DNA of 64,000 bases, taken from Syntrophales bacterium. GTDB taxonomy: Bacteria; Desulfobacterota; Syntrophia; Syntrophales; PHBD01. Shown piece after piece: positions 52,085-57,736 of the stretch. Within the stretch, counting starts at the first letter, position 1; every line of letters begins with the position of its first letter. The notes beneath the pieces are model-generated. The model worked only from the letters and a program-made list of their open reading frames with translations. It searched no databases and was not told where the DNA came from. The translations under genes were made by a program, and so were the position numbers. The stretch lies in assembly GCA_963668175.1 (NCBI GenBank), contig OY764159.1, positions 1,280,001-1,344,000 of the forward strand. Direction: 5' to 3'.

Positions 52085-52882
52085 TCAGAAGCGCCAATAT
52101 CTCCTGTTGTGCTGTCGCAGTTTTTCGAATATCGCTTCCATCTGACGGGGCGTCAGAATACGCTGTTCGACGAAATAGAGGCCGATGCGCGGCTGGAGCA
52201 ATCGTTGTCTTCCCAAAAGAAGAGTAAGCTGGTAGCGGTTAAGATAACCCCTGCGTAAGGCGCATTCGCCGAATTTTTCGCTGGGTCTCCTCTGCGAAAG
52301 GATCTTCAGGATATCGCCATGGTCGAGCCAGTACCATTGCACGGCGATCATACCCACGGCGGGGCGCTGCCTCTTCTGCCAGACGACCGCTTCGATGAGA
52401 GTCCTGCTCGAAATGATGCCGCTGTAATAGAGGAAACGTCCAATCGGCAGTTTTTTCTTGGGGACGTCGCATTGCCAGAAATGTTCCCGGAAGCCGCGAA
52501 ACGCGTCCTGCTGGCTGAATCCGCCGGCGTTCCCCGGCCTGGGACTTGCCGCCGGTTTTCTCTTCTTCCAGACCGGGGACGGCGAGGGCCTCCGCACAGG
52601 TTCGGGTTCTTCCAGGGAAAATCGCCAGGGGCTTTCGACGAACTCGATCAGTCGGGAGTAGGCAAGATTGACTTCCTTGAATCGCTCTTCCAGGCTTACC
52701 GGCTGCTCCGCCAGGGCTGCGGCCCTGTCCGGGTGCGTTTCGAAGGCCTTCTTCCTATAGGCCGCCTTCAGACCGGAAAGCTTGAGATACTTCAGGAAAT
52801 CGACGCCGATATTGACCTCACTGCCGAAGAGAACGGAGCAGGCGTTGATAAGCTCGTTTCTCGTGACAGTATTTTCTTGCAT
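52085..52882 (-). CDS. J-domain protein with C-terminal MshEN-like repeats
   Basis: LKAAYRKKAFETHPD J-domain; four xxGxxLxxxG...Q-type repeats. Confidence 0.75.
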   Translation of the reverse strand: MQENTVTRNELINACSVLFGSEVNIGVDFLKYLKLSGLKAAYRKKAFETHPDRAAALAEQPVSLEERFKEVNLAYSRLIEFVESPWRFSLEEPEPVRRPSPSPVWKKRKPAASPRPGNAGGFSQQDAFRGFREHFWQCDVPKKKLPIGRFLYYSGIISSRTLIEAVVWQKRQRPAVGMIAVQWYWLDHGDILKILSQRRPSEKFGECALRRGYLNRYQLTLLLGRQRLLQPRIGLYFVEQRILTPRQMEAIFEKLRQHNRRYWRF

Positions 52883-53498: not shown

Positions 53499-53783
53499 TT
53501 AAATCATATCCCATTCCGTATCGGGTGAGGCGAAATCCCGAAGCTGATCCCGTCTTTTCTTGTGCTGGAGTTTCTTTAGGGCCTTGGCCTCTATCTGCCG
53601 GATTCTTTCCCGCGTTACGCCCATCATTTCACCCACTTCTTCCAGGGTGAAGGGGCCGTAATTGCAGGCCACCCATGTACAGTTTAGAAATGATTCATTA
53701 TTTAAACGCCACTCACAACTTGTCTCCAGGCAAACCTCGCTGATCAGGTTTCCCTTCTTCTTGCAGCGATATGTATTGATCAA
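53499..53783 (-). CDS. Stand-alone sigma-70 region-4 HTH protein with Cys-rich N-terminus
   Basis: [30 protein letters not shown] start 9 nt after AAGGAG (alternative start 53807). Confidence 0.85.
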
Positions 53784-53818
53784 GGGGTCGGTCTCCTTTT
53801 CCGTCAAATATTGTCATT

Positions 53819-53850
53819 AGACTAAACATTGACATCCCGTTTGTCAATGT
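53819..53850 (-). promoter_or_regulatory. Sigma-70 promoter overlapped by an inverted -35 palindrome
   Basis: Minus-strand TTGACA-N17-TAGTCT; ACATTGACA-N7-TGTCAATGT perfect inverted repeat at 53826-53850. Confidence 0.7.
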
Positions 53851-53861
53851 CAGGCACACGA

Positions 53862-55169
53862 TTATTTGAGGCGCGATAAACGTTCCTCCAGACGTCGTTT
53901 TCGATATTCGAGTCCATGCTTTTCGTCGTCGGTCAGCCGTCCGGGACGCTCAAGAATACCCTCGACCAGGGCGAGGGCGTTTTCCGCCTTCCGGCAGCGG
54001 TGCTCGTACCATTTGGCGAGTTCGACGGCGGCGAAGACGTCGCCCGGATTGTCCGCCAGCATCTTTTCCCAGACGGAGACGGCCTTATGCCATTCGCCGG
54101 CGCGTTTGTAAAGGATGGAAAGCATTTGGCCGGCCTCGGCGGCAACGCCGTAACGCTCCGATTCCATGAGATAAACAAGCAACTTTCTTGTGCCTTCCCC
54201 GTCGGCGCGGGCCGCCCGCAGTTTTGCGGCTGCCAGAAGATCCCGATGATCGGCCGCGGCCGGTCCCAAGGGGGCGGCAATCAGTTCCGTGAGATGGAGC
54301 GTGAGCCCGGCCATCGAAATGACGTCGAGACGGTTGTGTTCGAAGACGTCCTTCATGATCCTCGGGTCCCGTCTTCTGAGCCAGTCGAAATAGCGCTGGG
54401 GGATTTCGCTGCCCGGGATGTCGTTTTCCCGGTAGAGTCCGAGGATATGGGGCTCGATGGTGGCCAGGCGGCTGTTATCCAGGCGGTGACCCACGAGCCT
54501 GCGGGCGGGGTGGAGGAGATCCAAGTGGGGCAGGCCGGCGAGCGGGTCCCGCAGTCGGTTCATGATGAAACGGGTGGTCAGGAGGCCGACGTCGAATGCC
54601 TTGCCGTTGAACGTGACGAGAAAGCCTTTCGTCCCCGAGATATCGGCCAGGAATGAGAGACAGGCCTTCTCCTCGGAGAAGTCCCTGGCGAAAATCTGCC
54701 TGGTGACGAAGGTTTTTCCTTCAAACCACCCGAGCCCGATCAGGAAAGCCACCGTTCCCGTGCCGCCCGCGAGGCCGGTCGTTTCCGTATCGAGAAAGAG
54801 GGCGTCGCTCCAGGCAAAGCCGGCAAGTGCGCTTTCCCCCGAAAGGAACGCCGCAGCCGCCATATCGACGGCGGCGTATTCGCCTATCGACCGGTGGCCG
54901 TGCCGGTCATGCTCTTCATGAACATCGTGGGAGACGAAGAGTCTGCCGTGGGGCGAATCCATCTCCCGGCCGTTAACCAAGGCATCGAGGGGAGGGGTAT
55001 GCCTGCCGGCCGCAGGCCTTGTGCCGGCAGCCGGTTTCGAGGCGGGGCGGCGGTTCATGATTTCCTCGACCCGCCGGCGAAGCTCGCTCAGCTGATCCGA
55101 GCGGGCCGGCGGCTTTTTCGCTTCGGTCTCTTCCCCTGTCAGTCTTTTGAGGCGCTTGGTGACGCTCAT
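53862..55169 (-). CDS. YprB/MrfB-like RNase H-fold exonuclease with TPR tail
   Basis: FLDTETTGL, TFNGKAFD, HLDLLH, HNRLDV; C-terminal TPRs. Confidence 0.88.
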   Translation of the reverse strand: MSVTKRLKRLTGEETEAKKPPARSDQLSELRRRVEEIMNRRPASKPAAGTRPAAGRHTPPLDALVNGREMDSPHGRLFVSHDVHEEHDRHGHRSIGEYAAVDMAAAAFLSGESALAGFAWSDALFLDTETTGLAGGTGTVAFLIGLGWFEGKTFVTRQIFARDFSEEKACLSFLADISGTKGFLVTFNGKAFDVGLLTTRFIMNRLRDPLAGLPHLDLLHPARRLVGHRLDNSRLATIEPHILGLYRENDIPGSEIPQRYFDWLRRRDPRIMKDVFEHNRLDVISMAGLTLHLTELIAAPLGPAAADHRDLLAAAKLRAARADGEGTRKLLVYLMESERYGVAAEAGQMLSILYKRAGEWHKAVSVWEKMLADNPGDVFAAVELAKWYEHRCRKAENALALVEGILERPGRLTDDEKHGLEYRKRRLEERLSRLK

Positions 55170-55198
55170 AATCTGCTCGCGTGCTTTAACTCCCGCGT

Positions 55199-57565
55199 TT
55201 ATTCCCCGATCAGGTCGATCATGGCCAGGGCGACGTCCTTGGCCGCCGTTCCCACCTCCAGGGTGGGACCGACGCAACTCGGGCATCCGTGGCTGCAGGG
55301 GCAGGAGACGATAAGATTCCTGGCCGATTCGAGCAGCCTGTCGTGCTGCTGGTAAAGCAGTTCCGAAAAGCCGATGCCGCCCGGATAGGCATCGAACAGG
55401 AAGACCGTCGGATCGAAGGCGTCGACCTGCACCTGGTTCGTCTCGCCGTTTTTGCCCGGCGTCGCGGTGATTGTGCGGCCGCCGGCGCCGTGGCGGACGA
55501 ACCATTCGCCGCTCTTGTCGCCGATGCTCCGGTCGAGATCGCGGAGATCGGCCATCAGGATCATCGCCGCCAGGTGGTGCAGCCCGTAAGCAAGCCCCGA
55601 CAGGCCGTCGATGATCTCGGCGCGGGTGAAAGGCAGACTGTCCAGAAGGTCCTTCGGAATCGTGAACCAGTAGCTCGTCGTATGCATGTCCTTTTCGGGG
55701 AGATTGACCTCGCCGTAGCCCAGGTTTTCCGATGTGTAGAACTTGATTTTCTTATAACCCACCACCTTCCGGACGACCTGGACCTCGCCGTGCTCGACCA
55801 TGATCCGCCGCGCCTGCTTGCTCGCGAAGGAGTCGATGACCCGGACGTTCGTGTAGGTCATGGCGTCCGTGTAGTAGTCCACCTCGACCTTGCGGACATA
55901 GGCCTTGTTCGCGTTGAGATCGAGCCTGTCCACGTGATACGGCTGCGATTCCAGCATGTAAATGGCGTTTTCGTGGACGGTCGTGAAGGCGCTGTCCCAG
56001 TCGACCTCGGCGATGACCCTGGGGGTGCCCGTTTCCGTTGCATCCACGACCACGACGTTTTCCGGGTTGATGCTGCGGAGATTGACCTCGTCGGCGGGGT
56101 AGCTTTCCGCCGACCAGTGCCAGCGGGAGTCCACGCGGTGGAGGACGCCTTTGTCTTCCAGGTAAGTGAGCAGCTCTTCCAGGTCCTCGCCCCCGAAGCA
56201 TTCGCCGGCCTCGAAGGGAAGCTCGAAGGCGGCGCTTTTCAGGTGGTGGAGCAGGATGAGGAGATTGTCGGGGTTGATACGGCAGTGCTCCGGCGAGCGC
56301 GAGAAGAAGTAATCGGGATTGTCGACGATGAACTGGTCCATGGGGTTGCTGCGGGCGATGAGGACGGCGAGGCTTTGTCCCATGCGCCTTCCCGCCCGGC
56401 CAGACTGCTGCCATGTCGCGGCGATCGATCCCGGGTAGCCGCACATGATGCAGGCCTCCAGGTTTCCAATGTCGATGCCCAGCTCCAGGGCGTTGGTGCT
56501 GACGACGCCCATCACGTCGCGGTTGCGCAGGCCCCCTTCGATCTGGCGCCGCAGGTTGGGGAGGTAGCCTCCCCGGTAGCCGCTGACGAAACGATCGTCC
56601 ACCGGCTTCTTCCTGTCGAACTGGTCTTTCAGATACCGCGTCAGGACCTCGACGGTGAGGCGGCTCGTCGTGAAGACGATGGTCTGGATGTCGTTGGCGA
56701 TCAGTTGCCCGGCGAGCTTCCGGGCCGGCGTCAGGGCCGACTGGCGGATGCCCAGCTCGCGGTTGACGATGGGCGGGTTGTAGAGGATGAACGTCTTGGC
56801 CGCCGTCGGCGCCCCGCTTTCGGCGATCGGCGTGATCGGCCTCTCAACGATGCGCTCCGCGTGTTCCTGTGGGTTGGCCACGGTCGCGGAGCAGCAGATG
56901 AAGACCGGGTCCTGCCCGTAGAAGGCGGCGATCCTCTTCAGGCGGCGGATAACGTTGGCCAGGTGGGAGCCGAAAACGCCCCGATAGACGTGGAGTTCGT
57001 CGATCACGACATATTTCAGGTTGGCGAAGAGCTTTTGCCACTTCGTATGATGCGGGAGGATGCCCGCGTGGAGCATGTCGGGATTGGTGATCACCACGTG
57101 GCCCTGCTTGCGGATGGCCTGGCGGGCGTCGTCGGGCGTGTCGCCGTCGTAGGTGTATGTCTTGATGCCGGCCTTGAGCCTGTCGATCAGGCCTTGCATC
57201 TCGTGCATCTGGTCCTGGGCCAGGGCCTTGGTCGGGAACATATACAACGCCCTCGTCTCCGGTTCTTCCAGGATGCCCTGGAGGACCGGCAGGTTGTAGC
57301 AGAGGGTCTTGCCGCTGGCCGTCGGCGTCACGAGGACGATGTCCCGTCCCGCCCGCACGTGCCCGACCGCTTCGGCCTGGTGACTGTACAGCCGGTCGAT
57401 GCCTTCGTCCTTGAGGACGCCGCGGATGCGGGAATCGACCCAGTCGGGGTAGGGGACGAGGTGCCCGGCGGAGGCTGGAATGCGCTTCAGGGCCTTGACA
57501 TTCTCCATGAAACGGCGGTTGTTTTCCAGCCGCGAGAGCCATTCTTCAAGGGTGAGCTTGGGCAT
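55199..57565 (-). CDS. YprA/MrfA (SftH-like) DEAH helicase with DUF1998
   Basis: LYSHQ, TASGKT, PTKALAQDQ, DELH, SAT, QQSGRAGR; C-terminal CPCSHGCPSC. Confidence 0.93.
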   Translation of the reverse strand: MPKLTLEEWLSRLENNRRFMENVKALKRIPASAGHLVPYPDWVDSRIRGVLKDEGIDRLYSHQAEAVGHVRAGRDIVLVTPTASGKTLCYNLPVLQGILEEPETRALYMFPTKALAQDQMHEMQGLIDRLKAGIKTYTYDGDTPDDARQAIRKQGHVVITNPDMLHAGILPHHTKWQKLFANLKYVVIDELHVYRGVFGSHLANVIRRLKRIAAFYGQDPVFICCSATVANPQEHAERIVERPITPIAESGAPTAAKTFILYNPPIVNRELGIRQSALTPARKLAGQLIANDIQTIVFTTSRLTVEVLTRYLKDQFDRKKPVDDRFVSGYRGGYLPNLRRQIEGGLRNRDVMGVVSTNALELGIDIGNLEACIMCGYPGSIAATWQQSGRAGRRMGQSLAVLIARSNPMDQFIVDNPDYFFSRSPEHCRINPDNLLILLHHLKSAAFELPFEAGECFGGEDLEELLTYLEDKGVLHRVDSRWHWSAESYPADEVNLRSINPENVVVVDATETGTPRVIAEVDWDSAFTTVHENAIYMLESQPYHVDRLDLNANKAYVRKVEVDYYTDAMTYTNVRVIDSFASKQARRIMVEHGEVQVVRKVVGYKKIKFYTSENLGYGEVNLPEKDMHTTSYWFTIPKDLLDSLPFTRAEIIDGLSGLAYGLHHLAAMILMADLRDLDRSIGDKSGEWFVRHGAGGRTITATPGKNGETNQVQVDAFDPTVFLFDAYPGGIGFSELLYQQHDRLLESARNLIVSCPCSHGCPSCVGPTLEVGTAAKDVALAMIDLIGE

Positions 57566-57593
57566 GAAAAGGTATTCCTCGTTAAGTTGGCGA

Positions 57594-57622
57594 AGTATAG
57601 AAAGTCGCTTACGGCGTGTCAA
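57594..57622 (-). promoter_or_regulatory. Sigma-70 promoter of the helicase operon
   Basis: TTGACA-N17-TATACT on the minus strand. Confidence 0.75.
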
Positions 57623-57736
57623 GAGAGAAAAGCGGACGGCAATATCCGTTGACTTATAGCCGGCTTGTGCTATCTTGCGAACCGGCGGGGCGATGCGCCC
57701 TTTGGTCCCAATGAATTGAGAATCGGGGAGGATGCG

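Follow-up and report, generated by a model that had tools for sequence, protein, structure and literature searches.

A stand-alone sigma region 4.2 protein as a probable subunit of a split housekeeping sigma factor in a Syntrophales bacterium

The window, a 64,000-nt stretch of a Syntrophales genome, carries on its minus strand a small gene whose features are collected in Table 1. The ORF starts with a TTG codon located 9 nt after the AGGAG motif. Pfam analysis of the encoded protein revealed Sigma70_r4 (PF04545) as its sole domain (residues 42–74; 50.3 bits, above the gathering cut-off of 24.1). The match covered profile positions 18–50, while positions 1–17, representing region 4.1, were unmatched in the small protein and were matched instead by residues 530–546 of RpoD. 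This bears out the first-pass annotation of the sequence, which had described a protein of about 94 aa with a near-RpoD region 4.2 helix-turn-helix and no regions 1–3; region 4.2 alone is present, without 4.1. The five N-terminal Cys noticed at that stage could also be located, at residues 7, 18, 23, 35, and 40. The NCBIfam matches were RpoD/SigA C-termini, and residues 44–86 were 55–70% identical to the C-termini of RpoD/SigA proteins. R58, E59, R62, Q63, L81, and F84 of the small protein align with R584, E585, R588, Q589, L607, and F610 of E. coli sigma70 (offset 526). Among these sigma70 residues, R584, E585, and Q589 are described as recognising the -35 box (PMC8407463), and the substitutions R541C and L607P together are described as disrupting the interaction of region 4 with the beta flap (10.1101/2022.01.24.477500).

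Table 1. Coordinates of the small gene and its control elements in the window
Feature	Position	Strand	Remark
Stand-alone sigma 4.2 protein ORF, 94 aa	53499..53783	-	Putative reader of the -35 box in a split RpoD
Region 4.2 helix-turn-helix and RpoD-type C-terminal helix, residues 46–84	53532..53648	-	Alignment, conservation, Foldseek
N-terminal Cys module (C7, C18, C23, C35; C40 order-specific)	53664..53765	-	Predicted metal site
Shine-Dalgarno AGGAG	53793..53797	-	Recurs in ortholog upstream regions
Sigma70-type promoter TTGACA-N17-TAGTCT of the small gene	53819..53847	-	Conserved among orthologs; TTGACA 53847–53842, 17-nt spacer, TAGTCT 53824–53819
Perfect 9-bp inverted repeat	53826..53850	.	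Second arm unconserved, likely incidental; arms 53826–53834 and 53842–53850, 7 nt apart

The genes of a MrfA-like helicase and a MrfB-like exonuclease lie upstream (53862–57652, minus strand), with the mrfB end 12 nt before the palindrome. Pfam assigned RNase_H_2 and TPR to the MrfB-like protein, and DEAD and MZB (the MrfA Zn-binding domain) to the MrfA-like protein. The position of the small gene directly downstream of MrfAB-type repair genes, as noted earlier, is correct; a functional link with them was not supported, as mrfB lies upstream of the small gene in 13 of 41 loci and the small gene has its own promoter. An enoyl-CoA hydratase gene is convergent to the small gene in 20 of the 41 loci. 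Downstream, at 52085–52882 on the minus strand, a DnaJ-domain protein with MshE-related c-di-GMP-binding motifs is encoded, which adjoins the small gene in two of the 41 loci.

The overlap of the TTGACA-N17-TAGTCT promoter with a perfect palindrome was borne out as sequence, and the additional near-matches to the -35 box, ATGACA (53817–53812) and TTGACG (53807–53802), were both present. From this arrangement the first-pass annotation had derived the possibility of a sigma4-mimic repressor acting as a dimer on inverted -35 boxes of its own promoter, or alternatively of a decoy for RNAP or an anti-sigma factor. A perfect 9-bp palindrome lying over the gene's own promoter, and unique in the genome, invites such a reading; however, the comparison of orthologs argued against it. 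Exact TTGACA was found in 34 of the 41 orthologous upstream regions, in most cases followed after 17 nt by a TA-type -10 box, while the inverted second arm was found in only one, the query itself (0/40 others). Even the closest ortholog, with 96% identity, carried four mismatches in the position of the second arm. Thus, the proposed conservation of TTGACA-Nx-TGTCAA upstream of homologs was absent outside the query. The genome scan that had been suggested for the palindrome revealed TTGACA-N7-TGTCAA once in 4.57 Mb (0.18 expected per spacer length), that is, no second copy and no regulon of such sites, and 846 perfect 9-bp inverted repeats with gaps of 3–12 nt genome-wide. Because comparable repeats are this frequent and the second arm is unconserved, the palindrome, real as sequence, looks incidental. 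Since the inverted arm occurs in the query alone and TTGACA in 34 of the 41 regions, what has been conserved is a strong promoter of ordinary kind. The repressor or decoy reading also leaves unexplained that the small gene tracks the decay of RpoD region 4.2 described below. It is largely refuted by this non-conservation and is regarded here as very improbable.

Conservation of the small protein was evaluated among 39 orthologs of the order. All five Cys and the residues R58, E59, R62, Q63, L81, and F84 were present in 39 of 39, and residues 46–84 were 96% identical. A rough count gave a median pN of 0.085 and a median pS of 0.955. An ORF representing a decayed rpoD fragment with unconserved Cys residues had been considered at the outset, and these values speak against it. 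By these measures, the product is a genuine, conserved stand-alone sigma region 4.2 protein with a conserved Cys module. The RNAP/anti-sigma decoy became unlikely on the same grounds, because the DNA-reading residues are invariant in the small protein while the host RpoD has lost them. In a wider set of 134 bacterial and phage-type sequences, C18 and C23 were invariant, and C7 and C35 were conserved in at least 90%. The AlphaFold2 model was built on this 134-sequence alignment and reached a pLDDT of 73 with a pTM of 0.43 (an earlier shallow alignment gave a pLDDT of 51); helices were predicted at residues 36–42, 47–54, 58–72, and 75–84. Foldseek aligned about 42 residues to region 4 of SigA/RpoD (probability 0.99, E 0.02–0.2). 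The fold searches aligned residues 39–94 only, so that the N-terminal Cys module was hardly covered, and the best Z of the VIA fold search, 3.2, was uninformative. Atlas matches to the N-terminal part were all below 0.9 and serve as leads only, and a search for residues 3–45 within a longer fused protein found none, which is weak evidence. The four conserved Cys likely bind a metal, which would stabilise a helix-turn-helix that has no 4.1 helices of its own.

The meaning of the small gene was changed by a decayed RpoD, which is out of view in the window. The sole RpoD of this complete single-contig genome is a 591-aa protein encoded at G000:C1:146587-148362 (L031:433-2208), outside the window and unlinked to the small gene, at a distance of 1.19 Mb. 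Pfam identified r1.1, r1.2, r2, and r3 in it, and Sigma70_r4 at positions 2–18 only, below the cut-off. Region 4.1, with an invariant end, is followed by a low-complexity tail. Because RpoD matches the start of the profile and the small protein positions 18–50, the two proteins represent complementary halves of one Pfam profile. A search of the genome with the small protein revealed no RpoD region 4.2, nor was one found in the other frames at rpoD. A frameshift or an assembly error in rpoD could be rejected, as region 4.2 was absent from the other frames and the decay recurred in 61 genomes.

Comparison across the order revealed the same loss. The first helix motif was found in none of 57 order RpoD tails vs. 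all 49 outgroup tails, and the [RK]E...Q motif was kept in 5 of the 57. The order tails were 29 to 61 long, and the mean identity among order RpoDs was 0.24 in the tail vs. 0.89 in the preceding 45 residues (regions 3.2–4.1). Scores against a profile of outgroup tails were 91–101 bits for outgroup RpoDs, with a median of 9.6 (maximum 40) for the order. Four further order RpoDs were decayed too, giving 61 of 61 order-type RpoDs read, and region 4.2 was intact in 49 of 49 outgroup RpoDs. This count is of order-type RpoDs; outside it stand G017 (a 487-aa other sigma only), G020, G031, and G043 (no RpoD found), extra sigmas of 394–529 aa with intact 4.2, and G410. The only RpoD found in G410 is intact and is 67% identical to the RpoD of another family vs. 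52–54% to those of the order, and the contig is therefore likely a contaminant. This sequence (L486 / L492, G410:C89) is closer to family f82 than to its own order. The RpoD tails form a decay series, from those with a partly kept recognition helix and basic C-terminal helix (L042, L050, L048, L494, L495) to those ending about 30 residues past 4.1 (L325, L330, L334). An extra group 1/2-like sigma of 394–529 aa with intact 4.2 was seen beside a decayed RpoD in L046, L341, L342, L343, L493, L497, L498, and L114. In family f45 (L354-L363, L466), the RpoD residue corresponding to E. coli R584 is Lys, and region 4.2 is intact apart from this.

The small gene was distributed together with the decayed RpoD. 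It was present at full length in 59 of 61 relatives and in two contig-end pieces in one more. Within the class, 129 of 135 genomes carried it, and the six without it were all multi-contig assemblies (10–320 contigs). Named homologs of the protein were labelled Syntrophales, Syntrophaceae or Smithella. Among 401 genomes of the phylum, 16 carried the gene, comprising 14 of 14 order members, two members of the genus g43, and none of the 385 others; in a 301-genome phylum sample, it was present in 13 of 13 order members. The genus g43 belongs to another class, and its small protein is 50–55% identical; in both g43 carriers, RpoD was decayed too. As a check on the non-carriers, 254 of the 301 genomes lay above a score that the decayed RpoDs of the sample missed, although a decayed RpoD can be hidden by the presence of an extra sigma, which is the case in G096. 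Of the non-order genomes below this score, 31 were read and all had region 4.2 intact, a single sigma of 467–490 aa being the only one found in four of these 31; G293 was cut, and G116 was without a match. No decayed RpoD was seen among the non-carriers of the 301-genome sample. The RpoD tree separates g43 from the order; the AU test did not reject a joint clade of both (p 0.30), and the co-distribution therefore goes back to one evolutionary event or two, not to many. In 7 of the 135 class genomes, the small gene was present in a second copy; those read (L487, L488, L489, and L490 in G390, G392, G397, and G423) lie among ordinary chromosomal genes, and two of them have longer C-terminal tails.

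Whether promoters with a TTGACA box are still in use was evaluated by counting spacers. In this genome, TTGACA followed by TA...T was found at 161 sites with a spacer of 17 nt vs. 15–46 sites at each of the other spacers of 12–22 nt. TTGAC was located within 120 nt upstream of 24 of 40 first-in-cluster tRNA genes, with 7 in antisense (0.116 expected each). The counts for spacers 17/20 were 114/26, 72/21, and 71/8 in three other order genomes, 41/19 in G062, where the -35 signal was about twofold only, and 152/17 in a control with intact RpoD. Judging from these counts, TTGACA-N17 promoters remain strongly selected and the -35 box is still read. Compensation by an extended -10 element was also considered and rejected, as TG was present in 10 of the 161 promoters and genome-wide counts (591 vs. 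571 and 530) revealed no excess.

The genome was further searched in six frames for the recognition helix, and only two motifs were found, one in the small protein and the other in a second sigma, which we take to be RpoH-like from its motif. Against the profile of outgroup tails, the small protein scored 69 bits vs. 39 bits for the RpoH-like sigma, and the small protein carries the sole RpoD-type recognition helix in the genome. RpoD could conceivably act alone without 4.2, with TTGACA being read by another sigma (the RpoH-like or an extra one) or by a remnant in RpoD, and with the small protein regulating a subset of promoters. The related helix of the RpoH-like sigma would fit this, as would the part of the recognition helix kept in 5 of 57 order RpoDs and the assembly G014, which is without the small gene. 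However, no trace of the helix is left in the RpoD of this genome, which nevertheless has 161 TTGACA-N17-TA...T sites; most tRNA promoters are of sigma70 type, the extended -10 compensation is absent, and extra sigmas occur in 8 of 135 genomes only. Such an arrangement is also consistent with Thermus sigmaA, which is described as active on test promoters in vitro without region 4.2 (PMC3173786), so that RpoD need not be rescued. Taken with the points against it, we consider this account quite unlikely.

The small protein is probably the detached region 4.2 of a split housekeeping sigma, supplying -35 recognition to RpoD in trans. The starting points are the decay of RpoD region 4.2, its co-distribution with the small gene, the invariance of the DNA- and flap-contact positions, and the ongoing selection of TTGACA-N17 promoters. 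The -10 and -35 recognition modules are placed on separate polypeptides, with region 2 in an RpoD lacking 4.2 and region 4.2 alone in the small protein. RpoD would bind core and melt the -10 box in the usual way, and the small protein would dock, via its C-terminal helix, on the retained region 4.1 of RpoD and/or the tip of the beta flap. Docking would rebuild a sigma-4 domain that reads TTGACA, with a metal held by the four Cys steadying the helix-turn-helix in place of 4.1 helices of its own. From the near-consensus promoter, the small gene would be expected to be constitutively expressed, possibly self-sustaining, and essential. Prediction of a complex of the RpoD C-terminus, the small protein, and Zn gave a score of 0.55 vs. 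0.00 for the best control; the runs shared at least 75% of contacts and the partner had a pLDDT of at least 66. Of 157 solved pairs, 116 reached the mark for this score, as did 2 of 215 mismatched pairs; at scores of 0.60 or below, only 18 of the 157 solved pairs did so, along with both mismatches. A passing score may also reflect likeness to the intact sigma-4 fold. The predicted complex thus gives weak support to the split sigma. Several points run counter to it: the small gene is missing from 6 of 135 class assemblies, including G014; 8 of 135 class genomes have a long-frame match to another long sigma with intact 4.2; RpoD may need no rescue, given the activity of the shortened Thermus sigmaA; the co-distribution goes back to one or two events; and the -35 signal of G062 is about twofold only. 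In the G014 assembly, RpoD is decayed, TTGACA promoters are strong, and the small gene is missing, as is any close match to the gene that usually neighbours it; a genome of the same genus carries the small gene.

Alternatively, the small protein, singly or oligomerised, might first bind -35 boxes as a co-activator and then recruit the RpoD holoenzyme transiently and non-stoichiometrically. The co-distribution and the promoter data fit this equally, the small gene is unlinked to rpoD (1.19 Mb), the complex prediction is weak, and the Cys module could allow an independent fold. However, L81 and F84, both invariant, correspond to residues in the C-terminal helix with which sigma70 faces the flap, and a single sigma-4 helix-turn-helix binds DNA weakly by itself. 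Moreover, region 4.1 of RpoD is still 89% identical though its own 4.2 is gone, which suggests a retained protein interface. On balance, a co-activator appears unlikely.

The split-sigma reading has its closest likeness in SigO-RsoA (YvrI-YvrHa) of Bacillus subtilis, where the -10 and -35 determinants are described on separate chains (PMC8103513; 10.64898/2026.10.01.756105). SigO-RsoA is an alternative, ECF-like factor of three operons, split between sigma2 and sigma4, whereas here a full RpoD of group 1 (591 aa) is the partner, the split falls inside sigma4 (4.1/4.2), the genes are unlinked at 1.19 Mb, and a Cys module forms part of the small subunit. Two-subunit sigma factors are also described for Tn916 (Sig7-Sig8), T4 (gp55/gp33), and SPO1 (gp33/gp34); in Tn916, Sig7 is region-4-like and its own promoter is under positive feedback (10.64898/2026.10.01.756105). 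These factors belong to mobile elements or phages and serve private promoters, and none is reported as a substitute for part of a host housekeeping sigma. Likeness to primary sigma70 region 4 (PF04545) concerns both the fold and residues 44–86; the small protein differs in being free-standing and in having the four-Cys module in place of 4.1. PhyR also has a sigma-like domain outside a sigma factor, with DNA- and RNAP-contact regions described as degenerated and a role in titrating an anti-sigma (PMC8103513), whereas those positions are invariant here. The comparison suggests that the small protein likely works like a subunit of a split sigma, outside the SigO-RsoA type because of its group 1 partner, the break in domain 4, and the unlinked genes.

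To our knowledge, nearly all bacteria are assumed to have a single-chain primary sigma whose region 4.2 reads TTGACA. In the main texts of the openly accessible literature searched, neither a split primary sigma nor this small-protein family was found described. If true, the housekeeping sigma of an entire class would be naturally split inside domain 4, which would represent a new architecture of basal transcription and a natural experiment on the coupling of -10 and -35 recognition. Syntrophic anaerobes, which have a central role in methanogenic degradation, would thereby have a new point of global transcriptional control. In evolutionary terms, the split would be a clean example of how a module, once duplicated or captured, renders the original redundant and can then no longer be dispensed with.

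A possible origin is indicated by a phage family of Cys + sigma4 proteins (L103, P0122-P0225; an Atlas cluster consisting of 95% viruses), which has the architecture and the four Cys in common with the small protein and was its best BFVD fold match, over 70 columns. The phage family differs in its recognition helix (SFARIKQ/SFARVKQ vs. TRERIRQ) and its shorter tail; among the 134 aligned rows, 85 were of the SFARIKQ type and 49 of the TRERIRQ type. No full-length match to the small protein was found in annotated phages. The bacterial small protein may combine a module of phage type with an RpoD-type 4.2. More doubtful, though conceivable, is that the whole class, and possibly a second lineage independently, gave -35 recognition to a captured phage-type Cys/sigma4 gene with a recognition helix matching that of RpoD, after which region 4.2 of RpoD decayed and the two-chain housekeeping sigma became fixed, and that the small subunit could be a metal- or redox-sensitive global switch between -35-dependent and -35-independent transcription. 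A tblastn search found no sigma2-like gene near the phage-type Cys + sigma4 genes. An order-type copy with 73% identity was observed on an IMG/VR contig (L095:2989-3264), without TTGACA in the 140 nt upstream and beside an HU-like gene. In 23 of 23 loci (L103:2621-3201 and 22 other IMG/VR loci, e.g. L239, L270, and L249), a conserved partner gene lies upstream of the phage-type gene; it encodes about 105 aa of no Pfam family and, in L103, the two genes share a stop/start overlap.
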